Shown here: piece after piece, positions 28,759-58,416 of the stretch
Numbering within the stretch: the first letter of the stretch is position 1
Layout: every line of letters begins with the position of its first letter
IMG/VR virus record: IMGVR_UViG_3300035034_002090
Coordinates: 45,238-109,237 of that record
DNA from: a virus
Taxonomy: Duplodnaviria > Heunggongvirae > Uroviricota > Caudoviricetes
DNA length: 64,000 bases
Direction: 5' to 3' (one strand)
Notes under the pieces: generated by a model
The model's database searches: none
What the model saw: the letters and a program-made list of their open reading frames with translations, nothing else
Told to the model about the DNA's origin: nothing
Made by a program: the position numbers and the translations under genes

Positions 28759-29493
28759 ATGGATGCACCCGGCGAAAGCACAAATCATAGGGAAGAGGGC
28801 GCAAAGAAGTTCATGCGCCTCAAGGCTCTTGATTGCTTCGAGAAAGTCCTACAGATGATTCGACACGGCTATCCTTATGCAAGGATCGCTGAGTTCATAC
28901 AAGTCGAGCAGGACGAGTATGAGGACATCACGCGGGACAGCCTTATAAAGACTATTCGCCGATTTGTGGATCAAGAGTTTCACCGCTATGAGGAAACCGT
29001 GGATCGTACGCTGCCTCAGCAGGAGGAATTACCCCCCAAAGATGAGGAAGACGCGCTGGTACGCGCTGAGAAGTCAGAGGCCATCGATGTGCTCAACGAG
29101 TACGGACGCTTGTACCAGCTTCAGGAGCGCAGGATCAATATGGGGATGAAGGCCGAGAAGAAAGCGGGCACCCTCATGAAGGAGGTCGGACAGCAGATTG
29201 AGATCGCTGCACGCCTCCTAGATCATATTGGTGGTTACCAGCAGGACATCGGTATGCTGCCAAAGCAGTCTCAAAAGGTTGATGTAAGCGTTCGCCCTGT
29301 TCGTGAGGGAATGTCTGAGCCGGTCACCGCTAAGATAGCAGGGGACCCAGCAAGCAGGGCTAGGGTATTGAAGTTTATGAAGCTCGCTGGTCGGTTTGAC
29401 CCAAAGCTTATCGAGGATATGAAGGAAGACGAGCTTGATGAAGACATTCTCGACGCTGAGTTTGTAGAGTCAGGAGGGGACACCAATGATTGA
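28759..29493 (+). CDS. putative terminase small subunit
   Basis: Overlaps the start of terL; N-terminal HTH-like segment, helical body. Confidence 0.55.
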   Translation: MDAPGESTNHREEGAKKFMRLKALDCFEKVLQMIRHGYPYARIAEFIQVEQDEYEDITRDSLIKTIRRFVDQEFHRYEETVDRTLPQQEELPPKDEEDALVRAEKSEAIDVLNEYGRLYQLQERRINMGMKAEKKAGTLMKEVGQQIEIAARLLDHIGGYQQDIGMLPKQSQKVDVSVRPVREGMSEPVTAKIAGDPASRARVLKFMKLAGRFDPKLIEDMKEDELDEDILDAEFVESGGDTND

Positions 29494-31480
29494 GGAAGAA
29501 GGAGGAAGGGCGAGGACAGTAAAGACGGATAAGGAGAAGAAACAAGAGGCCGTCAAATTACTTGAATCAATGGATGATGATGAGCGTGCACTGGTTACTC
29601 GTTTTCTTCTGGGCGACGAAAATGCCATAGAGGATATGGAGAGTATCGAGGACCTGCACTATAAGCGAAAGCCTCTGCCCTTCCATGAGTGGGTCGAAGA
29701 CGAGTATTTCAGCGACCCCGCCTCTAAAAACCTATACAAGGTCCTCAAGGAGGATCTGGCTGTCATTTTCGAAGAGGGTTACTTTGAAATCCTTGAGACA
29801 GGGTCGATTGGTTGGGGTAAGTCTTTCTCGGCCGTCACCGGGATGCTTTACTCCATCTACCTTCTTACGTGTCTCAAAGACCCCCATCAGACGTATGGCC
29901 TAGCGGCGGGTGCACCCGTCTACTTTATATTCCTTTCGACAACCAAGCTTCAGGCATCCAGAACAATATTTGAGGACTTCAAGAACAGAATGCAGTCCAT
30001 CGAGTATTTTCAGGATCTAGAAGAAGAGATGAACTTTCACAGCTACTCCGGAAGCTTTGGAGACTGGATGAAGTTTATCTGCATCTCACCCAACTCCACA
30101 GATGCGATTGGACTAAACGTCTTTGGGGGAATTATGGACGAGGTTAACTACGGATCCAACGCGAGGATACTCAAGGGAGAGGACTCCATTAATTCTCGTG
30201 GGAGGCCGGTAACAAAGGTTGAGAAGATTTACGCCAGCATCATTCAGCGTATCAAGTCCAGATTTATGAAGCAGGGGTCCCTCCCCGGGGTCCTGTTCGT
30301 TATATCCTCAAAGAATAACGAAATGGACTTCACAGCGCAGAGGATTTCCGAGGCAAAGAACGACCCTCGCGTGTACGTGATGGATTATGCCCCTTGGGAT
30401 GTTAAGCCTAAGCGGGACTTCTCTGGTAAAAAGTTCAGGGTTTTCTTCGGCGGCAGATCCGCCCCATCTAAGGTCCTAGCTAAAGGTGAAGACCCTCCTT
30501 TCGTAAACGATGACTTAGCTGAAGTTATCGAGATCCCTATCGAGTACCTCAAGGATTTCGAAAGGGACATCGAAACAGCTATCCGAGACATCGCCGGAAA
30601 GCAGGTGCCTAGAATTACCCTCTTCCTTCCTGATAAATCTGTTATTTCTTCGATGTGGAAAGGACGAGAGAATGACGAGCACCCTTACGAGACGGTGGAC
30701 TGGATCTGTGGCAATCCAGCAGGCTTTCGCTGGGACATTTTGTGCGATAGAAAAACACAGGTGCTTGCCGGAAACGTAGAGGAAGACTTTACCCCTAAGA
30801 TCAATCCTGACTCACCCAGACATATTCATATTGACCCCTCAATTGTTGGTGACGCGACTGGAATCTGCATGGGTCACGTCGAGAGGTGGGTTGATGTTGT
30901 TATGAGGGACCGCCAGAACGGCGAGGTGTATAAGGAGCTTAGGCCGCTAATTTATATCGACCTAGTCCTCAGGGTGCTACCTCCGAAGAACGGTGAAATT
31001 GATCAGTCTGAAGTGCGAAGGCTTATATACGAACTTGAGAACCGTGGGTTCATTATCACCTATGTATCCGCCGACTCCTATCAAAGTAGGGGCTCCTTAC
31101 AGCAGCTAAAGAAAAAAGGGTACAAGACTGAGATCCGGAGTCTTGATAGAAAACCAGACGGGTATCTATGCCTAAAGGACGCCCTCAGAGAAGAGCGGGT
31201 GAGATCTTACGAGCACGATGTTTTACGTCATGAGTTGGAAAGATTGAAACGAGACAATGCCACGGGCAAGGTGGATCACCCAAAGAAAGGGAGTAAGGAT
31301 CTATCTGACTCCTTGGCTGGTGTAGTATGGTCACTAACAGAGATCAGGACCGCCGCCCCGGGTTATTTCTTCAGCGAGGATGAAAGCAAGTCATCTCACC
31401 CGCTAGAGCAGTGGGAAGATGTTTCTGGGGGAATGGGTGGTGTAGTTAATCTCGGAACGAATAGCTTCCTCAAAGGGTAA
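29486..31480 (+). CDS. terL: terminase large subunit
   Basis: GSIGWGKS, GIMDEVN, HIHIDPS, DHPKKGSKDLSDS. Confidence 0.92.
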   Translation: MIEEEGGRARTVKTDKEKKQEAVKLLESMDDDERALVTRFLLGDENAIEDMESIEDLHYKRKPLPFHEWVEDEYFSDPASKNLYKVLKEDLAVIFEEGYFEILETGSIGWGKSFSAVTGMLYSIYLLTCLKDPHQTYGLAAGAPVYFIFLSTTKLQASRTIFEDFKNRMQSIEYFQDLEEEMNFHSYSGSFGDWMKFICISPNSTDAIGLNVFGGIMDEVNYGSNARILKGEDSINSRGRPVTKVEKIYASIIQRIKSRFMKQGSLPGVLFVISSKNNEMDFTAQRISEAKNDPRVYVMDYAPWDVKPKRDFSGKKFRVFFGGRSAPSKVLAKGEDPPFVNDDLAEVIEIPIEYLKDFERDIETAIRDIAGKQVPRITLFLPDKSVISSMWKGRENDEHPYETVDWICGNPAGFRWDILCDRKTQVLAGNVEEDFTPKINPDSPRHIHIDPSIVGDATGICMGHVERWVDVVMRDRQNGEVYKELRPLIYIDLVLRVLPPKNGEIDQSEVRRLIYELENRGFIITYVSADSYQSRGSLQQLKKKGYKTEIRSLDRKPDGYLCLKDALREERVRSYEHDVLRHELERLKRDNATGKVDHPKKGSKDLSDSLAGVVWSLTEIRTAAPGYFFSEDESKSSHPLEQWEDVSGGMGGVVNLGTNSFLKG

Positions 31481-31486
31481 GTAGCA

Positions 31487-33247
31487 ATGGGACGAATTCA
31501 AAACGTTTGGAAGCAGGTAAAGGACTTCTTCCAAAAAGACTCGGAGGACATCCGGCAAATCAACAAGGTCCGCTTCCCCCATATGCTTGACAGCCCTTTT
31601 ATGTCAGATCAAGGGTCGATGTCTGACGCTTATGGGGAACAGGTGAGAATCCATCAGGATCTAATCCATAGGTTCAGAGATTATGAACAAATGGATGATT
31701 ATCCGGAGGTCGCCAGTGCATTTGACATATACGCAGATGAGGCAACTCAGCCGGACTTTATTCGAAAAGCTCAGGTCTGGGTCGAGTCGGACAATGACAA
31801 CGTCAACGCCGACCTAAATTATGTTCTACACCATCAACTAAAGGTTCAAGATTGGGCGTGGGAGGCGACGCGCTATCTGTGCAAGTACGGAAACGACTAC
31901 GAGCGTATATTCGTCAATGAAAACGGAGTGGTAGCTACACAGCCTCTACCGGTTGCGTCGACGAGGCGAGTGCATGATGAGATGGGAGAGCTTGCCGGTT
32001 TTGTTGTTTCTCACCGGTACGCCAACCCGGGTGTGACGACAAGCCAGTTCCGTGGCCTTATCAACCAGAGGGACTCTGGCCATTTCAACAGGGACTTCAG
32101 GGCAACGCGAGGTGCAGGTGACCTCATGGCCTTCGAGAATTGGGAGGTGTCTCACTTTAGGATCGTCGGCAAGAACCGCATGAGCAGGTACGGCTATGGG
32201 GTTGCTGAGAGCGCCAGATGGCCGTTTAAGCGCCTCACCATGATGGAAGACGCGGCCGTGGTTCACAAGCTGACGAGAGCGCCTTCTAGGTATGCATTTT
32301 ACGTGGACACCGGGGAGATGCCGCCACAGCAGGCCATGCAGCAGGTCCGTAAAGTCCGCGACATGTACAAGAAGCAGCGTATCGTCAACCCAAAGACGAA
32401 CAAGCTAGACACTACCTTCAACCCGCTTGCGATTGATGAAGACCTCTTCATCCCGGTTCACAGGGAGCGTGGAGAGCAGGTTCGAGTAGATACGCTTCAG
32501 GGTTCCGGATACCAGTCGATGGAAGATGTCGACTACTTTCGGAAAAAGCTAGGTCGTGCGCTAAAAATCCCAAGTTTCGCTCAGGACGATCAGGCTCAAA
32601 GACAGCCCCTCAGTTTCGAGGACATTCGTTTTGCCTCGGCGATTATGCGCATTCAAGCTGCGATGACCCAAGGTTTCCGAAAGATCTTGGACGTGCACTT
32701 GATTGCGACCGGCAGGAGCCCATCAGATTTCCCCTACAAGGTTATGATGACGGTGCCTTCAGCCATCCTTGAGTTGGCTAGAATTGAGGTAATGAGCGCC
32801 AAGAGTGACTTCATGAGCAGAATGCAGGAGCACGTAAGCGTCCGCTGGATGCTGGTGAATCTGTTTGGCTTCAGTGAGCAAGAGTCCGTCAACTTGATGG
32901 TCATGCGCGAGGAAGAACGTGATATGTCTTCGGCCGCACAGACGGAGAGGGAAGTCCAGCGTGAGAAGCTGATGAATAAGCTAAGGGAATCGAAGAACCT
33001 CAGTGAGGCAGAAATTAAGCGCGTTGAGAAAAGGCTTCAAGCCGAGGACGGCCGCGAGAGACTCAAAGAAATGCACGGATCCAAGGGCGTCTCCGAACAG
33101 GCTTACTTCGCAGGGAGGAACGATCTAGATCCAACGAGAGTAATCGAGGATATGCAGAGGCGAGACCCGGAGCTGTTCAATCGACTTAACCAGCTCAGAC
33201 AAATGCTAGAAGAGATCAGGGCACACAGCGCCTTCAGGAGGGGATGA
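31487..33247 (+). CDS. portal protein (T4 gp20-like)
   Basis: YEQMDDYPEVASAFDIYADEAT, RAPSRYAFYVDTG, EDLFIP, DVDYFRKKL. Confidence 0.92.
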   Translation: MGRIQNVWKQVKDFFQKDSEDIRQINKVRFPHMLDSPFMSDQGSMSDAYGEQVRIHQDLIHRFRDYEQMDDYPEVASAFDIYADEATQPDFIRKAQVWVESDNDNVNADLNYVLHHQLKVQDWAWEATRYLCKYGNDYERIFVNENGVVATQPLPVASTRRVHDEMGELAGFVVSHRYANPGVTTSQFRGLINQRDSGHFNRDFRATRGAGDLMAFENWEVSHFRIVGKNRMSRYGYGVAESARWPFKRLTMMEDAAVVHKLTRAPSRYAFYVDTGEMPPQQAMQQVRKVRDMYKKQRIVNPKTNKLDTTFNPLAIDEDLFIPVHRERGEQVRVDTLQGSGYQSMEDVDYFRKKLGRALKIPSFAQDDQAQRQPLSFEDIRFASAIMRIQAAMTQGFRKILDVHLIATGRSPSDFPYKVMMTVPSAILELARIEVMSAKSDFMSRMQEHVSVRWMLVNLFGFSEQESVNLMVMREEERDMSSAAQTEREVQREKLMNKLRESKNLSEAEIKRVEKRLQAEDGRERLKEMHGSKGVSEQAYFAGRNDLDPTRVIEDMQRRDPELFNRLNQLRQMLEEIRAHSAFRRG

Positions 33248-34083
33248 TGAACAAAGACGAGAAGCACATCATACCAAGCAGGCTCGATAAGCTAATGGAG
33301 GGCCGCCTTGAGGACTTTTTATCGCGTGTTGAAGAAAGCGTATATCTGCAAGGTAATGAGATTGGCTCAGACTTGAGAGTCATTGGGACATTCTTAGATC
33401 ACGCGTTGGTATGTACCGAGGACAATCGCGTGTTTCGCCTCGGTCTAGGCTCTGATGGTGAAGTCGCCTCGGTTCAGGAGCAAGACCAGTCGGTATTATT
33501 TGGTGGGTCGAAAGAGTTTTCGAGAGAGATATTAGAGCGTTTGGAGAGTCTGTCCTCTCAAGTGGACTCTGATCCGGAGGCTCTACGGGAGTACAGCAGG
33601 CTGATCGTCAGTGAAGAGCGACGATGGTTCTTTGACGCTCTCTTGAGCGAGGTTGAGGATCTTATGTCAGAGTACCGCAAGTGGAAGACACTTGCCTCTG
33701 AGGTGAGTCGCTCCATGCTTGCTGAGGCTATGGAGTCCCTTCCTCACGACCCTCACCTTCAAGAGGAACGAGAAGCCATACAAAATGCTTCAGCGTACCG
33801 TGACTGGAAGGCCGTCTTAGAGTCTCTATCAAAAACAGCATATAACTTGATTCCGGAAGATACTTGCGAAATTCTTGAATCTAAGTCGGAGTACGCCGAC
33901 GCTTATTCCGAGTTACGGTCTGATGTGATGCGTGTAGAGCAAGTCCTTTCTTCGGTTAGTCGTTTCGCTCGATTCGCACCATCAGATCAACTTAGTCTAT
34001 TAAGCGAGCGAACACGTAATGCGCTCACAGAAATTTCCAGAGCGCGTGTGGCGATAGGAGTCAACACCCATGAGTCAAGATAA
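33244..34083 (+). CDS. putative prohead core/internal protein
   Basis: Between portal and protease; helical; several x-x-E-S/G sites. Confidence 0.55.
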   Translation: MMNKDEKHIIPSRLDKLMEGRLEDFLSRVEESVYLQGNEIGSDLRVIGTFLDHALVCTEDNRVFRLGLGSDGEVASVQEQDQSVLFGGSKEFSREILERLESLSSQVDSDPEALREYSRLIVSEERRWFFDALLSEVEDLMSEYRKWKTLASEVSRSMLAEAMESLPHDPHLQEEREAIQNASAYRDWKAVLESLSKTAYNLIPEDTCEILESKSEYADAYSELRSDVMRVEQVLSSVSRFARFAPSDQLSLLSERTRNALTEISRARVAIGVNTHESR

Positions 34084-35233
34084 TCTGAAAGAGCAGATCG
34101 GCATTACCTTCGGTGATCTGTTGAATAACAGTCTGGCTATCAATAGCCATCTCAGCAAGATCAAAGAATCCGAGGACAAGTCGAAAGGCAAGTCCAAAAA
34201 GGATGAAAAGGATGAAGAGGAAGGCGAAGAGCAGCAGGAGGCCATTGCCGCTGTAGCCAAACCTCTTAAACCTGTCTCTGATCCCCCTGCGTCTAAGACC
34301 GTAGGAACCAAGGGTCAGGAAGGCTCTCCCGGTGGTCACGAGGGTCAGTACGACAGCGAGGACGGCGAGGAAGGCGATGTTGATCACCCGGAGCAGTACG
34401 GAGACTACGAAGGTCTAGATACTCCAGATCCGGACAATCCATCCTATGAAAGCCGCACTGCTATCGATGACTACATTGATTTGTGGCATGAAAGCAAGGA
34501 CGAGGAAGAGGAAGAGGAAGACGACGATGATGATGACGATGATGATGACGACGAGGTAGAAGAGTCGTTTGATTACGGCTTTGACGATGACCTTGTCGAA
34601 GACACTTTCGAAATCAGCATTCAGGAAGCCTACAGTTTTCTGGCTGAGTGCTATGACCTCGGCATCATCGATGATGACCCCGACTTCTTGGATGAAGATG
34701 AGATCCTAGAAGCCACAAAGACAGTTCGAAGAGTGGTCGGCGGATCTGTCAAAAAGGTCAAACAGAAAAAGTACACCGCCAAGCAGAAGCGAAAAGCGCG
34801 TACCAGATACAAGAAGAATAAGAGCAAGATCAAGCGCCAACGCAAGAAGCGGAACAAGAAGTCCTCGACTAAGCGACGAAAGAAGAAGCTCAGCCGAAAG
34901 GAGTCGCGTCGTGTCGTCCGAAGAAAGGATGACGTATTGGCTGAAGGTGACGACCTAGAAGAGTCTCGATTCGACTCTCGACCTCGAAGTGAGATCACCA
35001 CGGTGAAACCGCTTGGTCGCTCTATCGAGGACCTCCGATCCAGCTCGCGAGTTGCCTCTAAGGCAATCCGCATGTCAGAGGACCGGGTTGTATCTGAAAG
35101 CCTTCGCACCTTTGTCGATCATTGTCGAGATCTTATCGATGAGGCTAATGAGGGAAACTTGGACGAGGCGACGTTGGATCGCCTCTCCAATCAGGCCCTG
35201 TCCATCGCCATGGATGCGACATCGAATCTGTAG
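34070..35233 (+). CDS. putative prohead core protein with poly-acidic and poly-basic blocks
   Basis: E/D run then K/R run; position equivalent to T4 gp67/gp68. Confidence 0.65.
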   Translation: MSQDNLKEQIGITFGDLLNNSLAINSHLSKIKESEDKSKGKSKKDEKDEEEGEEQQEAIAAVAKPLKPVSDPPASKTVGTKGQEGSPGGHEGQYDSEDGEEGDVDHPEQYGDYEGLDTPDPDNPSYESRTAIDDYIDLWHESKDEEEEEEDDDDDDDDDDDEVEESFDYGFDDDLVEDTFEISIQEAYSFLAECYDLGIIDDDPDFLDEDEILEATKTVRRVVGGSVKKVKQKKYTAKQKRKARTRYKKNKSKIKRQRKKRNKKSSTKRRKKKLSRKESRRVVRRKDDVLAEGDDLEESRFDSRPRSEITTVKPLGRSIEDLRSSSRVASKAIRMSEDRVVSESLRTFVDHCRDLIDEANEGNLDEATLDRLSNQALSIAMDATSNL

Positions 35234-35517
35234 TCGAGCGCATAACCCGGTTTGTCGAAGAGGCCAAAAAGAAGCGAAAAAAAGAGCCTAAGACAGACCG
35301 GGACCGTGAGGATGAAAAAGAGAAAGGCGGTGGGAAGCGAAAGCGACGCACTGCCTACTCTTCCGGCCGGAGAGAAAAGCTGGGCTTCCGAACGAAACGA
35401 CCTTCAGTCCGTAACAAGGTAAAGAAAGCCCTTGGGACCGGCAACAAGAAGAAGACTAGGAAGAGAGTCATCTCTGGCACGCCGCACGCATCGAATCACC
35501 GATGGCGTAAACACTAG
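35152..35517 (+). CDS. -1 frame extension of the 34070 gene (no own start codon); very basic
   Basis: Frame open from the G GGA AAC heptamer to TAG 35515-35517; encodes IESVVERITRFVEEAKKKRKK...RWRKH. Confidence 0.6.
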   Translation, partial: GKLGRGDVGSPLQSGPVHRHGCDIESVVERITRFVEEAKKKRKKEPKTDRDREDEKEKGGGKRKRRTAYSSGRREKLGFRTKRPSVRNKVKKALGTGNKKKTRKRVISGTPHASNHRWRKH

Positions 35518-35542
35518 AAACAACTGATCGCTTAATACCTTT

Positions 35543-35574
35543 GAAGAGGGGCCATCCGGCCCCTCTTCCTTTTT
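35543..35574 (+). terminator. intrinsic terminator
   Basis: GAAGAGGGGCC-ATCC-GGCCCCTCTTC-CTTTTT; lies just after the -1 frame stop. Confidence 0.85.
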
Positions 35575-35583
35575 ACCCTCCTA

Positions 35584-35607
35584 AAAGTTGTTTCAGAGTT
35601 CCGACCC
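35584..35607 (+). promoter_or_regulatory. candidate late promoter/operator, copy 1
   Basis: AAAGTTGTTTCAG-N6-GACCC; 98 nt between the 13-mer and the ATG at 35695. Confidence 0.55.
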
Positions 35608-35694
35608 GTGTTTCCTCGATGAGTATCGCCCTGTGAAGTGGGCGTGAGTTTGCACTTTCGAGTCGACTACGTTTGACCGACACGGGAAGGTCCT

Positions 35695-37761
35695 ATGTCC
35701 CACAGAAAAGTTTTACATGACGGCTTCGCTCCGCTGAAGCTGAAAATTCAAGAGAGTACAGGCGACCGCCTGATCGCAACCGGCGAATTTGGCCGATGCG
35801 GAGACCCCACTGCTAACGGCAGGGTCTATCCGCGTAACCTGATGGAGCGTGAAGTCAAGCGCCTGTCGAACAAGCTCGAAGGCAGAGCGCTTTATGGGGA
35901 GCTGGACCATCCTGATGATGGCAAAACCCTCTTAAAACGAGTCAGCCACATTATCACGGGCCTAACCATCGAAAATGATGGTCGAGTTATTGGCACCCTA
36001 GAGGTCCTTGAGGATACCGAGAACGGACGACAGCTCAAAGGCTTGGTTGAGTCAGGAGTTGCCCTTGGTGTTAGCTCCAGAGGCTTGGGGTCCGTTAAGA
36101 AAATGAACGGCAAATCTGTGGTTCAAGAGGACTTTCGTCTTCTTACCTACGATGTCGTTGCCGATCCCGCCGTTGCAACAGCACAGCCAGATTACACCCG
36201 AGAAGAAGAAGAGTACGGCGACGAGGGAGAGGTCGTCCTTGCTGCCGAGTCAGATGACGCGGCCAGTAAAGAAGACGCTTCTTCAGAAGCTACCAGCGAG
36301 GATACCAAAATGGATCTTGATACTTTCAAGGCAGATAATCCTGAGATCGTATCTCAGCTCGAAGAGGACTTCCGAAGTAAAGCTGAGAGCCAAGAGGAAC
36401 CCGCTTCCACGGACAGCTTGTCAGAGCGCTTCCAGAAGGAGCTTCAGTCAGCAAGAGAAGAGATTGAGGCAAGATTTGCGGATGGCCTCGAACAGGCTAT
36501 CGCTGAGGCCCGAGAGGAAGAGCGCAATAAGCTAGCCAAGAAGGTTTCGGAGTCATCTGGCGAGGCTTCTGTCGAGAAGATTAAGGCGATTGCCGCTGAT
36601 CTGGTTACTCCAGACCAAATCTCGGAGAGCCACAAAAAGGAGCTTGGTGCTCTACAGAAGAGTATCTCCGAGCTTAGGTCTGAGACTGAATCAAAGGATC
36701 TTTACATCGAAGAGCTTCAGGATTCCCTTCTGGAGAGTGGGATGGCTTATGCGCTTCTCACACACATGCCACATATCTCTGAAGAGCATCAAGAGCACTT
36801 TGTCGAAATGGTAGGGGACCTATCCACCTACAATACTGTCGAAAGTCTTGAGAAGCGGGCTGATGCTGTCGCCGAGGAATTTAGGCGTACGGGACGATAC
36901 CTCGATAGTTCCGCATCTCTCTCTAAGAAGTTGGACGAAGCTCAGGCGAGGGTTGAAGAGGCTGAGGGCACGCAGGAAAGCCTACAACTTAGGCTTGAGG
37001 AATATGAAAGCGTTCTTCTGGATGCTCAGGATGAAATTACCTCCCTTAGAGAGTCCAATGAAGCCGCAGAATTGGAGCTAGAGTCTCTGGCCGAGGCCCT
37101 CGAAGAATCTGAGGACGAACTAATCGCTGAACGTGCAGAAGTAGATGAGCTTTATGAGCTTCTCGCGGAAGCTGATGAAGAGGTCGAAGAGTATGTCGAC
37201 ATGCTCGACGAAGCCAAAGAGGCCATTGCCCAGAGGGAGGTACTCATCGAGCAGCGTGACGACCTAATCATAAAGCAAAGAGACGCCATTAATGAGAGCG
37301 AGAAGATCGTATCCGATCTTCAGGTCCGCCTCGAAGAGACTGAGCTTGATAAATATAGGGTGGAGAGCGCCATCGGGGCACGCAATCCCAATGAGACAAT
37401 CCGACAGCTCAAAGAAGCGAATTCCTTCGAAGAGGTAGACAATCTTTTGGAAGGCCGCCGCAGCAACCGAACAGCTAAGCCAGCCCCGGTAGGATCCACA
37501 AGCAACACAGGCGCGGATCCTATTATGGAGGAAAACGTCCGAGACAGCATCATGAGTGTCGTCGAGGGTGAATTCCCTAAGGTCTCTGGGATTATCAAAA
37601 ATGGCTCCGAGGCGGGATTGATCTCAGAAAATGAAAAAAAATTGGAATCTGAAAATTCAAGACCAAACAATGGTCTTCGAAGCAACGGGACAGCTAGCCA
37701 AAAAGCCAGCATCCCGGGAATAGACCCCGCTACGATGAACCGAATTCTGAGCGGAAGTTAA
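35695..37761 (+). CDS. prohead protease (T4 gp21-like) fused to coiled-coil scaffold
   Basis: NGRVYP, GELDHP, VSHII, GVSSRGLGS, YDVVADP; long acidic coiled coil. Confidence 0.92.
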   Translation: MSHRKVLHDGFAPLKLKIQESTGDRLIATGEFGRCGDPTANGRVYPRNLMEREVKRLSNKLEGRALYGELDHPDDGKTLLKRVSHIITGLTIENDGRVIGTLEVLEDTENGRQLKGLVESGVALGVSSRGLGSVKKMNGKSVVQEDFRLLTYDVVADPAVATAQPDYTREEEEYGDEGEVVLAAESDDAASKEDASSEATSEDTKMDLDTFKADNPEIVSQLEEDFRSKAESQEEPASTDSLSERFQKELQSAREEIEARFADGLEQAIAEAREEERNKLAKKVSESSGEASVEKIKAIAADLVTPDQISESHKKELGALQKSISELRSETESKDLYIEELQDSLLESGMAYALLTHMPHISEEHQEHFVEMVGDLSTYNTVESLEKRADAVAEEFRRTGRYLDSSASLSKKLDEAQARVEEAEGTQESLQLRLEEYESVLLDAQDEITSLRESNEAAELELESLAEALEESEDELIAERAEVDELYELLAEADEEVEEYVDMLDEAKEAIAQREVLIEQRDDLIIKQRDAINESEKIVSDLQVRLEETELDKYRVESAIGARNPNETIRQLKEANSFEEVDNLLEGRRSNRTAKPAPVGSTSNTGADPIMEENVRDSIMSVVEGEFPKVSGIIKNGSEAGLISENEKKLESENSRPNNGLRSNGTASQKASIPGIDPATMNRILSGS

Positions 37762-37810
37762 ACAACCGATAATGCTCCGTAGGGAGCTTGTCATAGATGG
37801 GAGCAAGACC

Positions 37811-39328
37811 ATGACGTACGAGGCTCGCAGCATGGAGATCCAAGAGGGACAGAACATTCACAACCGAAAGTTTGTGGATAGTCTGGAAGAGAAATGGGAT
37901 CCATATCTTCAGCATATTGATAAGTCGCCGAACCCGTTCGACTATCGTCGAAAAACCACCGCGATGGTGCTGGAAAACACCGTCAAGGAAATGCCGCGTC
38001 AACTCAGGCGCGACTCGATGCTTCAGGAGGCTGACGCCGCGTCGACTACGACCGGCGGAGTTGCCGACTACGCAAGCACGATTTTTCCTGTTCTCATGAG
38101 GGTCTTCCCGAACCTGATCGCACATGAGCTGGTCTCCATCCAGCCAATGGGCGGACCTGTAGGAGCGGTCTTTTACATGGAGTACAAGCATGGCACCAAC
38201 AAGGGTGCCACGACTAAGGGCTCCAACCTGATCGAGAACTTCGACGAGAACTACACCTCGTCTGAAGTCACCAACGAGCACATCGCGACCGGTAACGGCT
38301 CCGACTATGGTGGCGCTGGTTCTGCAATGACGGCTTCGCTGTCGTTCGCTCCCGTGTTTCCGCTGAACGCCGGACTTTCTTCTCCGGAATTCAAGGTTGT
38401 CATTCAGGAAGTTGACGCTTCCGGCAACGTGCAGCAGGAAGCTGTCGACGATGGGTCTGGTGGATTCACTGGAAACATCAGCTCTGGTTCAATCGACTAC
38501 GATACCGGTGCTATCACGAACTTTGTGTTCACGGCCGCGCCGTCGAACACCAACAAGATCGTTGCTTCGTACTTCTACGACATGGAGTCCAACTCCAACG
38601 TCCCGAAGGTCTCGCTCGACGTCTCCGTCAATGAGATCAAGGCGAAGTCTCGCAAGCTCAACGTCATCTGGAGTTCTGAGGCTGCTGACGACCTTCGCGC
38701 CCTGCACGGCATCGAAGGTGAAGCTCAGCTTCTCGCAGGTGTCTCGAACGAGATTGGTCTCGAAATCGATCGTGAGATCCTCAAGGACCTCCGACAGAAC
38801 GCCGACACCACTGACACGTTCGACCTCTCGACGCCGCCGACCGGTGTTGCGCAGATCGACTTCCTTCGTGAGCTGATCACCAAGATTCACCAGACTAGCT
38901 CCAAGATTCACAAGAAGTCGAAGCGTGCACAGGCGAACTGGATCGTCACTAGCCCGGAAGTCTCGGCGCTGCTGAACCAGTTCCAAGGCCACAGCGACTA
39001 CACCATGCTTGGATCGGCTCCTGACCGCTCACCCAGCTACGGTGAGATGACCTCCGATTACGGAATCTATCAGGTTGGACTACTGATGGGCCGCATGAAG
39101 GTCTACGTGGATCCTTTCTTCCAGAGCGATGAGCTTCTTCTGGGAATCAAGGGGAAAAACTACCTTGATGCAGGTATGGTATACTCTCCATATGTGCCGC
39201 TTCAGATGACTCAGACCTTCCTCGACCCCGAGGACCAGACCTACAAGAAGGGTCTTCGCACTAGGTACGCGAAGAAGCTTCTTCGTCCGTCGCACTACGG
39301 TCGAATCAAGGTGCTCGGTCTAGCGTAA
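37811..39328 (+). CDS. major capsid protein (T4 gp23-like) with inserted domain
   Basis: RVFPNLIAHELVSIQPMGGPVG, KSRKL, EIDREI, ANWIVTSP, YSPYVPL, TRY. Confidence 0.95.
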   Translation: MTYEARSMEIQEGQNIHNRKFVDSLEEKWDPYLQHIDKSPNPFDYRRKTTAMVLENTVKEMPRQLRRDSMLQEADAASTTTGGVADYASTIFPVLMRVFPNLIAHELVSIQPMGGPVGAVFYMEYKHGTNKGATTKGSNLIENFDENYTSSEVTNEHIATGNGSDYGGAGSAMTASLSFAPVFPLNAGLSSPEFKVVIQEVDASGNVQQEAVDDGSGGFTGNISSGSIDYDTGAITNFVFTAAPSNTNKIVASYFYDMESNSNVPKVSLDVSVNEIKAKSRKLNVIWSSEAADDLRALHGIEGEAQLLAGVSNEIGLEIDREILKDLRQNADTTDTFDLSTPPTGVAQIDFLRELITKIHQTSSKIHKKSKRAQANWIVTSPEVSALLNQFQGHSDYTMLGSAPDRSPSYGEMTSDYGIYQVGLLMGRMKVYVDPFFQSDELLLGIKGKNYLDAGMVYSPYVPLQMTQTFLDPEDQTYKKGLRTRYAKKLLRPSHYGRIKVLGLA

Positions 39329-52426: not shown

Positions 52427-53488
52427 ATGATGACTGATGATATTAAAAGCATCCCAGATGATGGTGAAAAGCCGGAAAAGCTCAGTGATGAGCAGGTTCA
52501 GAATCTGCTGAATAAAGGGATGAAGGAAAATGCCGATGGTCCCGAGGCGGACAAGTACACGCAGTTGGGTACTATTCTTGATGATGCAGATTTCGAAGGG
52601 AAGAGCATCTATGCAACCGTTCCTTTGCTGGGTGGTGGAGTCTTTGATGATAAGGGGCATCACGATGCAGCAATTATCAGAGAAATGACCGGACGCTCCG
52701 ACATGCTTCTGATGGACCTTAACGGGTTCGATACGAATGGTTTGAAGCAGATCGTTTTGGATTGTGTCGAATCTGTGGGGTCTTACACCGACAAGTCAGA
52801 CATTCAGAATTTAATTCTGGGGGACATGCTTATCGGGGATTACCTGTACCTCGTTATGCGCATCAGGCAACTGTCTGTAGGGGACGACTACCGGTTCAAG
52901 GATCAGTGCGGCAAATGCACCCACATTGATACCTACAACGTACTCATGTCCGAATTGGATTATGAGAACCCGATACCGCCGCTCGAAGAAAACCGACATC
53001 AGATCACCGAGCTAAGCAAGGGGCCGATGAATTGGGAGATTCACTGGCACTTCATGACGGAAGGTGACAGCAAATACCTAGATACCGTCATGAGCTGGAT
53101 GGACGACAAAGAGGGCGGAAGCAAGGCCAAGCAGAAGAAATCTTCAGATGAAGAGACTCCCAAAAAGGGACCTTCGGTGGATCTGCTTTCAGCCCAAATG
53201 ATTCCTCGCATTGATAAGATCGTCGAGCCAGATGGCGAAGAGGTTTTCTTCGGTCGCTCAAGCAAACGAACTGCTGATGGAAAATTGACCATGCAGCAGG
53301 GTGTTCAATATTTCCGCGATCTTCCTCTATGGATCCGCACCAAGTTTACATCAAAGGTCAATTATCTGGAGCCGGGTATTGATACTGAGGTGGTCTGGAA
53401 TTGCGCCAATTGCGGAAGCCAGAACAACAAGATTGTTTACCCGATGAGCCCTGATTTTTTTATCCAATTGGACACCCCGATCGATTAA
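52427..53488 (+). CDS. tail assembly chaperone / baseplate hub assembly protein (T4 gp26-like)
   Basis: IREMTG, DYLYL..IR..SVG..Y...CxxC, GID....CxxC, ends PDFF. Confidence 0.78.
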   Translation: MMTDDIKSIPDDGEKPEKLSDEQVQNLLNKGMKENADGPEADKYTQLGTILDDADFEGKSIYATVPLLGGGVFDDKGHHDAAIIREMTGRSDMLLMDLNGFDTNGLKQIVLDCVESVGSYTDKSDIQNLILGDMLIGDYLYLVMRIRQLSVGDDYRFKDQCGKCTHIDTYNVLMSELDYENPIPPLEENRHQITELSKGPMNWEIHWHFMTEGDSKYLDTVMSWMDDKEGGSKAKQKKSSDEETPKKGPSVDLLSAQMIPRIDKIVEPDGEEVFFGRSSKRTADGKLTMQQGVQYFRDLPLWIRTKFTSKVNYLEPGIDTEVVWNCANCGSQNNKIVYPMSPDFFIQLDTPID

Positions 53489-53655
53489 GGAATCTCTTAG
53501 AGACGGTGTCCTATCTAACGATCGAGGGCGGAATGTCGGCAGAAGAGGTTTTTCGCCTGCCATCCTCGCTTCGTGATGTGCTTGTAGAGTCACTGAATGA
53601 CAAGCTCAAGCGGGATTACGATTACAAAGTTGCAATGTTGAAGCGAGGGTTTTGA
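53455..53655 (+). CDS. -1 frameshift extension of the tail chaperone (G-T-like)
   Basis: In-phase T TTT TTT; -1 frame open to TGA 53653-53655. Confidence 0.75.
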   Translation, partial: FFYPIGHPDRLRNLLETVSYLTIEGGMSAEEVFRLPSSLRDVLVESLNDKLKRDYDYKVAMLKRGF

Positions 53656-53997: not shown

Positions 53998-56900
53998 ATG
54001 GGAAAAAACCTAGCGAACCTTGGTATCGCTTGGTACTCGGACGATAAGAAAGTTCAGAATGACATCGGTTCTCTTCAGGGATCACTGGAGGGCATCAAGG
54101 ATACTCTGGGTGCTATCAAGCGCGTCAATGCGATTGGTGCCATTGTTGACGCCGTCAGTATGGACAAGCTTCGAGCTATCAAAGCCGGTGTTTCAGAACT
54201 TGCTTCTGGAAATCTTGAGGCTGCTGGCGCGGCTGGACCCCTTGATTCCATGTATGCTCAGGCAGCCAAATCTGCCTCCCAGCTGGCCGCTTCGTCATCC
54301 AAAGTTTCTGAAAACATGAAGGGCGTCAATAAGTCTGTCGGTCTCGCAAGATCGCTCAATATTGATGCCAATGCTGTTCAGAAGATCGCCGCAGAGTTCA
54401 CGAAGCTCGAAACCAACGCCACCAAGTATGGTTTCGAGAGTATGAAGGACTTCGTGAAGATGACGCAGGTGGCCGAGGTGGAGGGGGAGAACCTTGTTAG
54501 AACCCTGAAGGGCCTTGAGACTGGCTTTAACTTCTCAGGCAAGGGCGCGGGTAAGCTGCTTGATGAAGTGACCTATATCGGCCGGGAGTTCGGTTTCGGC
54601 ACCGATGCTGTAAAGCAGTTCGAAACAGTCACAGGCTCGCTGAACGAGCACTTGCGATACATGGGAGAGGATGCTGGCCCGGAGGAATTCTCTGAGATGA
54701 CGCGCCAGATCTACCTCTTGGCCGGAGGTATGGTTAAGCTCGGAAAGGATCCAGCTGACGCCATGAGTGAGGCAACGGAAACGTTCACGAAACTCGCTGG
54801 AGCTAAGGGGGAGATGAGGGCCATGTTCACAGGAAAGGGTGGACTCCCTGACCTGCTTCAGCAGGGCGCTATCTCTATCGGTGATTTTGGAAAAATGCAG
54901 GACATGATGAACGAGAAGCCTCTCGATTTCATCATGAGCATGGGCGAGCACTTTGACAAGCTCGGCTCAAAGCAGCAGGAGTTCTTGCGTCAGAATGTCT
55001 TGAAAGACATGGGCGCGGACACCGACTGGTTTATTCAGGGAAACTGGAAGCAAGTCGCCCCCGCTATTGATAAAGTAAAAAATAGCATGGACAAGGCTAG
55101 CGGGTCGGCCCAGAAGATGGGCAAGCATTTCCGCACGGGGAGAACGTATACCGAAAGACTCAACATGGTGACTGAGGACTATCAGCAGTCGATTTCCGAC
55201 CTGACCAAAAACGCCCTTGGAAACACCTTCATTAAGCGCCAGCGAAACTTCTACATGGGTATGCTGGCACCGGCCTTTGAAAGCATGACGGAGGGCACGT
55301 TTAAGGTTGCAGAAGGTGTAGGGTTTATCAATAAGCAGCTCGACAAGACCGGCACTAACGCCAGTATCACCAAAGAGCAACTAGGGGGTATTCAGGAGGT
55401 TCTAGCGAAAGGCTTCTTGGGCTTTAGGGCTTCGGGGTTTGAGGGACTCATGGTTGCGGCCATGGATGCTGAGCCTGCAATCAAGGCCATATCTAAGTAC
55501 GCCAAAGTCACGACTGATACAGTAAAGGAAGCTAATGAGGATGGCTATGTTGCTCAGTTCACACTCCTTTGGAAGGCGGCCAAGGGATACCTAGGCTCGC
55601 TTAAGCCAATGCTGGAGGATGTGAAAGGAAAGATGAAGGAGATGTGGGATGACTTCAGGACAGCCCACCCCACGGTTTATGCCATCCAGTCATTTTTCTC
55701 TGACATGCATTCGAAGGCCGTAAAGCTGAAGGGCGTTGTGGAGGACCTCTTTGGTAAAGCCTTTGGGATAGACCCTCAAAAGAAAAAGGACCTCAAAGCA
55801 TCGCTAGATGGTATGAGAGGCGGCACCATTGGCGGCGCTAATTTCATGAACCCAATGGGGTCTCCCCTTAGCACTGGCACCCTCATGGACGATATGGCCA
55901 TGAAGGACCAAGAGAGTCTTATGGGTGCCATGATTGAGTCTGAGGACTTTAAGTCCAAAGAGGCGCACAAGAAGCTTGGTGTGGGCATAGCCACAATGAT
56001 GGCCGGTCTACCGCTCTCTAAATTTATTGCAGGCGCTATTCCCGGCGGAGGAATCTTGATGGCCCTGCTGGGTGTGGGCGCAGCAGCAGTTCACATCGAT
56101 CAGAATATGGAAGGGGGCATTGAGGCGTTCATTGATAAGGTCGCTGCAAAGATAGGCCCGCTCATCGATAAGGCATCGCCCCACCTCAAGAAGGCCGCTG
56201 ACGCGCTAGGAAAGCTGTTTTCGAAGCTGGCATCCATGATTGATTGGAATAAGGTCGGGGAGAAGCTCGCCTCCGGCGTAAGTAGCTTTGTGTCAGCACT
56301 TGGCTCAGCCATCAGCTATGCATTCAGTGACTCAAAGGGTCAAAAGGAGCTAGAAGGTGCTGCGAAAAACGGAGGCATGACGGCTTCTCTGGCGGTCGCT
56401 ATGGGTAAAGCCTTTGAGGGTCTGGGAGGGGCGCTAAAAGGAATGGGTAAAGGTATCCTGACAAGCCTGTGGCAAGGTGTAGTGGGTAAGCCTGAAGAAG
56501 ATAAGGAAGCCACCGAGGTTATATCTGATGCCGGTAAGACCGTAGCGGGCATGTTTGTTGCCGGTATCCTAACGGGTATCGCGGCAACCTTTACTCGCTC
56601 GAAGATCCTAGGCGTCATAGGAAGAGTTCTCAGAGCGCCAATATCTATCCCCTTCAAGTTCGTAGCGGGAACCACCAAAGCTGCCACTAAAGGGTACTTG
56701 ACTGCCAAGGGGATGGCGAAGGCTGGGGAATTAGCTCAGAAATTTGGGTTTGCCGATGATGTGGCTGCTGCTGAGGCTAGAGTTGCTGCCGCGTCTACCT
56801 CTAAAGAAGCTAGGGCTGCTAAGTTCGGTCTGGGTAAGGCTAAAGCTGGCGCTAAGCTCAGGGGTGCTGGCACGAAGGTTATCGGCGGCGTAGATAAGGC

Positions 56901-58416
56901 TGTTGCAAAGTCTGGGATGCTAGGGAAAGTTCTTGGCCTTGAAGACAAGCTATTCAAATTCAAGCAGGCTGGTCAGTTCCTTCAGTCAATGGGTGGAGCC
57001 GCTCCAGAAGCGGCAAAGTCAATGACCTTCATGAAGTCCATGAAGAACGTTTTAGCTCAGTCTAAGGTGGTGAAGTTCTTTAAGTTCCTAGGCAAATCCG
57101 CCAAGGCCATCGGAAAGGCTCTGGCTCCGATCGCGAAGTTTGCTTCAAAGATAGTGACTCCCATAATTTTGATATGGGAATACATGAAGCGGTTGCCGGA
57201 TATTGTATCCGACTTCGGGTCTCTTTTCTCCGATGCTCTGGACCCTGATGAACTTACCAAGAAGGGTTGGTCTATCGCGAAGAATTTTCTCGGCATCCTT
57301 GATGCGTTCTTCTTAAACATACCTAGCTGGATTGGGGAAAAGCTGGGCATAACCACCGAAATTGTTGAGGCTTTTTACCAATTCTTGAGCCTCAAGACCT
57401 ATGAAACGATCGAGTACGTAGCTGCATTCTTCGGCTCCATGGGAGACCGCGTAGAGGGCATCTATTACGGCGTTAAGTCCACAGCCATGAATGTGCTAGC
57501 TGGCATGGGGATGGGTGCCGTGAGCACGGTTTCAGGCATTCTGGAGTCGTTCTTCTCCCTTTCGACCTCGGTCGTGAACATATGGCATGACATAGCCAAG
57601 GTCGGTGCTGTCAAGTTTGCCGAGATGTTGGGGCAGGGCAATAGCTTTGTGAATGACTTGGTGCACGCCTTTGGCTCTCTCTCCAACATCATCATTTTCG
57701 ACGTCCTTGAACCAATCACGAGGGCCTTTAGTAAGGTATTCACGGGCATCCTCGATCTCATCATGGAGCTACCGGGAGCCGAGAAGGCTATTGGTATGCT
57801 TGGGTTTGACAACATCGAGGAATTCAAGTCGGCGACAAACCTGCATGAGCAGGCTTATGGAAAGAATGTCACAGATAAAAAAATCGAAAAGATGAAGAAG
57901 AAGCGCCTCTCCGACTTGATCAAGACTGATGCGGAGATGAAGAAAGAAAAGGAGACTCTGGTCAGGAGGGCAGAGGACATGGTCAAAAAGAGCCGTCAAG
58001 TCTCTCATCAGGGTATCTCTGCTGCGAAGGCAGTTGCATCTAAGGGTCTTGGCGGCGCTGCGAAGGGATTCGCGGCAATCGGCAGCCGTGCTTCAGCTGC
58101 TAGCGACAAGAGCCGTGCCGCGTACGCACGCAAGGATGAGCGTTTTGCTCAGGCGGACAGGAACATTGAACTTGAGCGCGCACGAGCGAGAGACCAAACG
58201 CTTGGCACGCTGAAAGGCCCCGGCACGGCTAAGCCCTCTCGCCCGGACGGCATTAGGCCCGGGCAGGGCCGGACCCCTGAGCAAGAAGCAATGGCCAAAT
58301 CCGCCAAAGCTAATGAAGAGACTGCGAACAATGTCAAGGAACTGGTTGATCTGGAGAAGCGTAAGGCCAAGAGAAAAAGTCCTCCGCCTCGGGTCACGGG
58401 TCCAGAGAACCCATAG
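53998..58416 (+). CDS. tape measure protein
   Basis: 1472 aa, Ala/Gly-rich helical, downstream of chaperone, upstream of baseplate. Confidence 0.88.
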   Translation: MGKNLANLGIAWYSDDKKVQNDIGSLQGSLEGIKDTLGAIKRVNAIGAIVDAVSMDKLRAIKAGVSELASGNLEAAGAAGPLDSMYAQAAKSASQLAASSSKVSENMKGVNKSVGLARSLNIDANAVQKIAAEFTKLETNATKYGFESMKDFVKMTQVAEVEGENLVRTLKGLETGFNFSGKGAGKLLDEVTYIGREFGFGTDAVKQFETVTGSLNEHLRYMGEDAGPEEFSEMTRQIYLLAGGMVKLGKDPADAMSEATETFTKLAGAKGEMRAMFTGKGGLPDLLQQGAISIGDFGKMQDMMNEKPLDFIMSMGEHFDKLGSKQQEFLRQNVLKDMGADTDWFIQGNWKQVAPAIDKVKNSMDKASGSAQKMGKHFRTGRTYTERLNMVTEDYQQSISDLTKNALGNTFIKRQRNFYMGMLAPAFESMTEGTFKVAEGVGFINKQLDKTGTNASITKEQLGGIQEVLAKGFLGFRASGFEGLMVAAMDAEPAIKAISKYAKVTTDTVKEANEDGYVAQFTLLWKAAKGYLGSLKPMLEDVKGKMKEMWDDFRTAHPTVYAIQSFFSDMHSKAVKLKGVVEDLFGKAFGIDPQKKKDLKASLDGMRGGTIGGANFMNPMGSPLSTGTLMDDMAMKDQESLMGAMIESEDFKSKEAHKKLGVGIATMMAGLPLSKFIAGAIPGGGILMALLGVGAAAVHIDQNMEGGIEAFIDKVAAKIGPLIDKASPHLKKAADALGKLFSKLASMIDWNKVGEKLASGVSSFVSALGSAISYAFSDSKGQKELEGAAKNGGMTASLAVAMGKAFEGLGGALKGMGKGILTSLWQGVVGKPEEDKEATEVISDAGKTVAGMFVAGILTGIAATFTRSKILGVIGRVLRAPISIPFKFVAGTTKAATKGYLTAKGMAKAGELAQKFGFADDVAAAEARVAAASTSKEARAAKFGLGKAKAGAKLRGAGTKVIGGVDKAVAKSGMLGKVLGLEDKLFKFKQAGQFLQSMGGAAPEAAKSMTFMKSMKNVLAQSKVVKFFKFLGKSAKAIGKALAPIAKFASKIVTPIILIWEYMKRLPDIVSDFGSLFSDALDPDELTKKGWSIAKNFLGILDAFFLNIPSWIGEKLGITTEIVEAFYQFLSLKTYETIEYVAAFFGSMGDRVEGIYYGVKSTAMNVLAGMGMGAVSTVSGILESFFSLSTSVVNIWHDIAKVGAVKFAEMLGQGNSFVNDLVHAFGSLSNIIIFDVLEPITRAFSKVFTGILDLIMELPGAEKAIGMLGFDNIEEFKSATNLHEQAYGKNVTDKKIEKMKKKRLSDLIKTDAEMKKEKETLVRRAEDMVKKSRQVSHQGISAAKAVASKGLGGAAKGFAAIGSRASAASDKSRAAYARKDERFAQADRNIELERARARDQTLGTLKGPGTAKPSRPDGIRPGQGRTPEQEAMAKSAKANEETANNVKELVDLEKRKAKRKSPPPRVTGPENP

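Follow-up and report, generated by a model that had tools for sequence, protein, structure and literature searches.

Shift sites have been predicted in the tail-chaperone genes of phages, with GGGAAAC in Burkholderia phage KL1 and Caulobacter phage Colossus and AAAAAAC in phiCbK (PMC3483164, PMC3556154), and GGGAAAC is listed as a shift site elsewhere (PMC5009743). Head genes that give two products by a -1 shift include those of T7 and T3 (gene 10A/10B), Lactobacillus A2 and Listeria A118/A500, and in dnaX (tau/gamma) a heptamer is combined with a downstream hairpin and an upstream Shine-Dalgarno-like element (PMC5009743). Here we describe a locus of an uncultured lake-water phage, with a head module assigned as T4-type by Pfam and PHROGs from metagenome assemblies, at which a programmed -1 frameshift probably fuses a small basic protein to the protein encoded upstream. 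The locus lies in a 64,000-nucleotide stretch of the IMG/VR virus record IMGVR_UViG_3300035034_002090 (hereafter the window), and the upstream gene, P0001, encodes 387 residues.

The window site is similar to the tail chaperones (lambda G/GT) in that a -1 shift on an X_XXY_YYZ heptamer near the end of a structural gene would produce a short and a long form, and the 0-frame stop directly after the heptamer in KL1 is also found in several lineages of the family described below. It differs from them in lying between the Portal_T4 and Peptidase_S77 genes and not upstream of the tape measure, and in that most relatives encode what is here the extension as a free-standing protein. The capsid frameshifts also concern a head gene with two products, but there it is the major capsid protein that is lengthened, in many cases by an Ig-like surface domain, whereas the window gene is not a capsid protein and its extension is basic, has a low-confidence fold prediction (predicted local distance difference test, pLDDT, <50) and has a likely protease site in front. 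The dnaX system shares with the window family the three signal elements named above and the fact that the two products are obtained by different means in different lineages (PMC5009743); there the shift truncates the protein, and in the window it would extend it.

The probable frameshift signal in the window

The elements of the locus are listed in order of position, with lengths in nucleotides (nt), base pairs (bp) or codons, and with P0001 as the open reading frame (ORF) that starts at 34070.

34070..35233, + strand: upstream gene P0001, 387 residues, between the T4-like portal and prohead protease genes
35141..35144, + strand: GAGG, Shine-Dalgarno-like, possible upstream stimulator, 7 nt 5' of the heptamer
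35152..35158, + strand: slippery heptamer G_GGA_AAC, in the X_XXY_YYZ phase of the 34070 ORF
35158..35517, + strand: -1 frame extension, 119 codons plus TAG, as read after a shift
35159..35190, + strand: hairpin, core stem 35165-35171/35179-35185, lower stem 35159-35163/35186-35190
35221..35262, + strand: leader-like segment IESVVERITRFVEE, homologous to the N-termini of free-standing relatives
35231..35235, + strand: TAGTC, the 0-frame stop TAG (35231-35233) overlapping GTC
35341..35376, + strand: invariant core motif KRRTAYSSGRRE of the small basic protein, from the family alignment
35543..35578, + strand: intrinsic terminator, 11-bp stem 35543-35568 (8 G-C pairs) and T run, after the -1 frame stop

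In the proposed mechanism, most ribosomes on the 34070 ORF would end at TAG 35231-35233 and release the 387-residue protein, and a fraction would slip back one base on G_GGA_AAC 35152-35158, aided by the hairpin, and continue to TAG 35515-35517 to give a protein of 482 residues that ends in the small basic protein. A frameshift would in this way replace stop-start coupling in the window phage and in 15 other lineages. What was observed is the signal, the absence of a start codon, the conserved protein of the -1 frame and the pattern among relatives; the slipping itself and its efficiency are inferred.

The 0-frame codons over the heptamer are GAG (35150), GGA (35153) and AAC (35156), and the phase given in the earlier note was therefore correct. 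In the -1 frame TGA (35149-35151) stands immediately 5' of the heptamer, after which the frame is open for 121 codons to TAG 35515-35517; it holds zero ATG, GTG or TTG codons ahead of the conserved motif, and up to that point the earlier description of a frame with no start codon was upheld. Read after the shift, the extension begins with a linker of 21 residues that is not conserved, continues through a leader-like helix and ends in the conserved basic domain. The computed trans-frame product (363 + 119 = 482 residues, versus 387 in the 0 frame) agreed with the isoform lengths proposed earlier, and the predicted tryptic peptide across its junction is DLIDEANEGNLGR. The leader-like segment is homologous to the free-standing N-termini MSEVVARIDAFLSEE and MSDLVARIDAFIAEE, and ATC 35221 of the window aligns with the ATG of those free-standing relatives, including L051 and L055.

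The hairpin (in order TTGGA, C, GAGGCGA, loop CGTTGGA, TCGCCTC, TCCAA) was recovered as the minimum-free-energy fold, at -18.3 kcal/mol with a z of -2.82, and 1/200 shuffles was as stable; both parts of the stem read from the letters alone were present in it. Its G+C-rich core stem of 7-8 bp begins 6 nt past the heptamer, within the stimulator spacing of 5-9 nt. The Rfam search returned noise and no match. A pseudoknot of the loop TTGGA with the downstream TCCAA was rejected because the partners abut the stem and leave no connecting loop, and transcriptional slippage on GGGAAAC was considered and found implausible. The upstream GAGG was found at 35141-35144, as noted earlier, 7 nt from the heptamer; the Shine-Dalgarno-like element of dnaX is about 10 nt upstream. 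Eight further shift-type loci have GAGG, AGGA or GGAG 6-10 nt 5' of the heptamer, although such elements at shift-type loci are inseparable from Glu/Asp codon content.

By itself the heptamer is not above chance, with 5 copies of GGGAAAC in the window versus 8.3 expected. The site stands out from chance because the -1 frame encodes a conserved protein and lacks a start codon, and because many relatives have this heptamer at the corresponding junction. A second in-phase GGGAAAC (55038-55044, in ORF 53998-58416) meets a -1 stop after 10 codons; this chance copy serves as a control. Elsewhere in the window, ORF 52427-53488 has an in-phase T_TTT_TTT (53455-53461) at its end, with the -1 frame open for 66 codons to TGA 53653-53655. 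The site resembles a -1 frameshift of the tail-chaperone type and would be the second in this phage, upstream of the 1472-residue ORF 53998-58416.

Encoding of the small basic protein in relatives

The -1 frame belongs to a conserved family of basic proteins of 65-111 residues, with the core GGGKRKRRTAYSSGRRE and the C-terminus RW(R/K)K. In the family alignment R, Y, S, G, R, E and G are invariant and W is nearly so. The window copy ends in RWRKH, and its conserved part makes up the last 98 residues of the 482-residue product. The homolog in L002, a lineage with a portal identity of 48%, is 48% identical to the window tail, and the core common to both is ...GG.K.RRTAYSSGRRE..G.R.KRPS.R...K.ALGT...TP..S..RWRK. 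Wherever DNA context was recovered, the small-protein gene lay directly 5' of the S77 protease and gp23 genes. Pfam and PHROGs gave no name for the family, and ESM Atlas look-ups were without a usable match. A profile search of 1.84 billion representative proteins found 15 members, all of 65-101 residues, and no in-frame fused form among them.

Between the window and its sister lineage L023 the small protein shows a pN of 0.25 with pS saturated. Identity to outgroups is 46-47% for the window copy and 46-53% for the L023 copy, so that the window copy is not decaying, and its 98 codons are without a stop or indel. Judged from these comparisons, the -1 frame is a real coding sequence under protein-level selection. 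The earlier note had described a very basic tail; the basic character was borne out, but the sequence is not a mere appendage, being a small head protein that is free-standing in 21/37 lineages.

These 37 lineages are distinct versions of the locus obtained from IMG/VR, JGI metagenomes and Logan assemblies, for each of which the frames, start codons and in-phase heptamers were recorded. All 21 lineages of the free-standing type start the small gene with ATG or GTG and have no heptamer. The start nearly always overlaps or abuts the upstream stop (ATGA, GTGA, TAGTG, or a few bases apart), and a good Shine-Dalgarno sequence is seldom present, which together argue for translational coupling. Relative to the upstream gene, the free-standing frame is +1 in some lineages and -1 in others. 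In L002 (11146-11216) and L012 (5857-5948) the upstream gene has poly-Asp codons (GAT GAC) that yield many ATGs when read in the +1 frame, one of which starts the small gene, and in L002 AAGGAG is found 4 nt before the first ATG.

The remaining 16/37 lineages are of the shift type, with an in-phase heptamer between the last -1 frame stop and the motif. The heptamer is G_GGA_AAC in 14/16 (the window, L015, L017, L020, L034, L037, L041, L042 and L044-L049), G_GGA_AAG in L014 and A_AAA_AAC in L054. No ATG, GTG or TTG precedes the motif in 10/16 shift-type lineages, including the window, versus 0/21 of the free-standing type (Fisher p 2e-5). The Gly of the heptamer is always GGA, and in the 14 G_GGA_AAC lineages the Asn is always AAC. 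The codon preceding GGA is GAG, AAG, ATG, TTG, CGG or TCG; because these specify six residues and the third base is nevertheless always G, the heptamer appears to be kept as nucleotides, beyond the need for Gly-Asn.

In L037, L046, L047 and L048 the last -1 frame stop lies 0-2 codons 5' of the heptamer and the 0-frame stop 0-1 codons 3' of it, and the motif follows 8-11 codons further on with no start codon; a shift would be the sole route to the conserved protein there. L054 is an independent case, having a different heptamer in a layout as in the window. Its A_AAA_AAC (1412-1420) lies inside a run of eight A, with the -1 frame TAA directly before, and transcriptional slippage is possible there as an alternative to ribosomal slippage. 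In L044 an in-phase A_AAA_AAG (2905) and G_GGA_AAC (2959), 54 nt apart, both open the same -1 frame. Hairpins 6-7 nt past the heptamer were also found in L034, L041, L044 and L049, and the 0-frame stop is adjacent to the heptamer in ten lineages. A consensus fold of the L015, L017, L037 and L045-L048 junctions gave no conserved downstream structure and no convincing covariation. The reading of the site as a -1 frameshift, first made on the window alone, gained support from the same heptamer in 13 other lineages, and at the level of the family we regard frameshifting with high confidence as established, as far as sequence comparison allows.

Alternative readings of the window

In a tree of the protease domain the window was sister to L023 with a support of 99. 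Both fall in a well-supported 13-row group, in which eleven rows are free-standing and the window and L054 are separate shift-type rows; the whole tree needs at least five state changes, three of them forced by strongly supported branches. The upstream gene of L023 ends in EYCRDAVEEAWDGNIDEETMELQSNEALSIAAQAAAQI before its stop, collinear with the DHCRDLIDEANEGNLDEATLDRLSNQALSIAMDATSNL end of the window gene. Its Gly-Asn codons read GAC GGA AAT (C_GGA_AAT) and are not slippery, the homologous stretch has no hairpin (z +0.37), and the start of the small gene is a GTG that overlaps the stop (TAGTG); the window reads TAGTC there. Of the window's heptamer, hairpin and lost start, L023 has none. Conservation, which the earlier note had put forward as a check, held for the heptamer and the -1 frame protein across the family and failed for the heptamer and the hairpin in this sister.

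Several observations weigh against a frameshift in the window itself. The nearest relatives (L023, L051, L055 and L056) encode the small protein as a free-standing gene, and the heptamer is kept across 14 lineages yet not in the nearest of these, L023. Since the window is a lone shift-type row beside L023, its heptamer is either a separate gain or a chance one. The stretch from the heptamer to the leader is conserved in the 0 frame and not in the -1 frame, so the long form would carry a 21-residue unselected linker, unlike most other lineages, whose junctions are compact. Given the residues E-G-N, the codons GAG-GGA-AAC would be expected by chance in about 1 in 15-20 cases, as a rough estimate. 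G_GGA_AAC is also reported to be less shift-prone in E. coli than the highly shift-prone G_GGA_AAG (PMC5009743).

The relatives suggest another route to the small protein, in which it would still be free-standing and be made by re-initiation after TAG 35231-35233 on ATC 35221, GTC 35233 or ATA 35242, the heptamer and hairpin being coincidental. All nearest relatives use coupled re-initiation at ATGA or TAGTG overlaps, two of the three codons stand exactly where relatives have their starts in the alignment (ATC 35221 at the ATG of L051 and L055, GTC 35233 at the GTG of L023), and the leader-like N-terminus is intact in the window. However, ATC, ATA and GTC are very poor or non-functional initiators, and no Shine-Dalgarno sequence precedes any of the three in the window. 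Re-initiation would also demand three coincidences in one lineage that lacks a start, namely an in-phase heptamer, a hairpin (z -2.8) and an open -1 frame, with the heptamer the same as in 13 other lineages and the hairpin at the canonical spacing, and we consider it unlikely. More improbable still is that the small gene has recently lost its start (GTG to GTC, or ATG to ATC) and is silent, its frame being intact because the loss is recent. The window has no start codon where its sister L023 has one at the homologous site, but the small gene is present in all 37 related loci examined, the window copy is not unusually diverged and its 98 codons are free of stops and indels, the same sequence is present in at least two further lake samples, and a frameshift signal sits in front of it.

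The earlier note had allowed for a one-base sequencing or assembly error near 35220 that splits a single ORF (...MDAT-IESVVER...), and on both sides of about 35220 the two frames do resemble protein sequence. In contigs assembled from other lake metagenome runs, however, 34833-35677 and 35155-35362 are matched with 0 differences and 0 gaps, so that these independent assemblies give no sign of an indel; the two-frame layout with a stop recurs in L023; and a single continuous ORF was never seen in homologs, the 15 protein matches all being short and none of the representative proteins being fused in frame. We attach a very slight chance to such an error. A programmed -1 frameshift that fuses the small basic protein to P0001 remains, in our judgement, the probable explanation for the window phage.

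The head module and a possible role of the small protein

The neighbouring genes of the T4-type head module are the following.

29486-31480: large terminase
31487-33247: portal (Portal_T4)
33244-34083: ORF of 279 residues, between the portal and the 387-residue ORF
35695..37761, + strand: prohead protease (Peptidase_S77) fused to a scaffold-like region, from Pfam and PHROGs
37772-39328: gp23-like major capsid gene, directly after the protease-scaffold gene

The terminator (stem 35543-35568) follows the -1 frame stop, as had been read from the letters. No cultured relative emerged when 50,697 phage records were searched at the nucleotide and protein level with the region, P0001 and the tail, and the window capsid protein is <35% identical to that of any isolate. 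A scan of GTDB genomes with the tail found no relative and hence no clue to the host, and there were no RNA runs among the sequencing runs that hold the stretch. The 759-residue portal of L004 (7854-10133) contains, in its conserved YEQMDDYP region, an insert that resembles an intein (...DINC-LTADT...VVHN-S...), with an HNH-like ORF just 5' of the portal gene, and the portal of L052 was called at 935 residues.

P0001 has one acidic and one Lys/Arg-rich stretch and is helical in its C-terminal part, and its 0-frame end is HCRDLIDEANEGNLDEATLDRLSNQALSIAMDATSNL. L023 and others have upstream ORFs to which the C-terminal part can be aligned. P0001 had no Pfam or PHROG family match, ten upstream proteins gave no meaningful family in Pfam and PHROGs, and a word-index search with the P0001 C-terminus matched itself alone. 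The upstream proteins of L038-L040 end in DPDALAAWIGRKKYGKEKFAKMAA, unlike the Cys-containing helix and Gly-Asn ending of other lineages, and with these differing C-termini the gene upstream of the small protein is not identical in all lineages.

Genes 67 and 68 of T4 occupy the same place, between portal gene 20 and protease gene 21, with the scaffold and gp23 after. The composition is also similar, gp67 being helical and then acidic and gp68 having a Lys/Arg-rich tail directly before gene 21; T4 differs in using no frameshift at genes 67/68. None of P0001, P0002 and 16 members of the family alignment matched PF17634 (GP67) or phrog_1049 (gp68), in searches in which T4 gp67 matched PF17634 at 1.8e-48 and gp68 matched phrog_1049 at 1.7e-71, and hhalign of the family against T4 gp68 gave a probability of 0.2, which is no similarity.

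A second likeness to T4 concerns the internal proteins. T4 gp21, the founding S77 member, cuts after Glu in L/I-x-E, and the internal proteins of T4 have a 10-residue N-terminal targeting sequence that leads them into the core and is then removed by gp21 (PMC9026906). By sequence inspection, most members of the small basic family have L/I/V-x-E 2-4 residues ahead of the basic motif. Resembling the internal proteins IPI-III in this respect, the free-standing members have an N-terminal leader of 10-15 residues that ends in L-x-E (MIPLSLLLGE-GSRKRRTAY, MTLVSLSALLE-GKKKRRTAY, VWIPVQELIE-KARKRRTAY), and the shift-type junctions read GNRLIE-SRRKRRTAY, GNLTE-EPRKRRTAY, GNRLVE-ANRKRRTAY and ...PLGE-GKRKRRTAY. 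The candidate cleavage site in the window is FVE or VEE (35251-35262). By analogy, the vehicle in front, which would be the short leader or, when fused, the whole upstream protein, would carry the basic part into the prohead core, where the S77 protease would free it at L/I/V-x-E as an internal head protein. Where the earlier note had proposed a DNA-binding-like tail, the conserved L-x-E immediately ahead of the motif points to release of the basic part by the prohead protease in the manner of a T4 internal protein. A complex prediction of the tail with the protease-scaffold protein scored 0.08, which is under the mark and gives no answer.

We tentatively suggest, as a reading whose chances we put at somewhat below even, that the KRRTAYSSGRRE protein may be a widespread internal head protein of uncultured phages with T4-like heads, which would have two interchangeable routes into the prohead. 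It would travel either behind a cleavable leader on a coupled gene or fused through a -1 shift to the core protein before it, the protease site being retained at the junction. Under the same reading the lineages would have switched routes at least three to five times, and the window and L054 would be recent switches in which the old leader is still present.

The mechanism is textbook -1 frameshifting, but its place and pattern appear to be new: a head-core gene between portal and protease, an unnamed basic family, and repeated switching between coupling and frameshift. No prior description of such a head-gene frameshift was found in the literature searched, which left most subscription journals outside. 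Nothing was called between 35233 and 35695 by gene calling in the window, and only a 46-residue fragment in L054. Gene callers miss or truncate the small gene in shift-type lineages, and a conserved head component is consequently absent from the annotations of this environmental phage group.

Within the family, the two genes are joined by stop-start coupling in some lineages and by a -1 frameshift in others, so that it forms a natural series. With its three heptamers and its differing stimulators (a hairpin or an adjacent stop), it should be useful for studying the origin of frameshift sites. With the small basic protein the T4-type prohead protease module would gain a new conserved partner, and the fusion of that protein to a core protein suggests a natural counterpart of the engineered packaging of cargo in T4 by fusion to a core protein.

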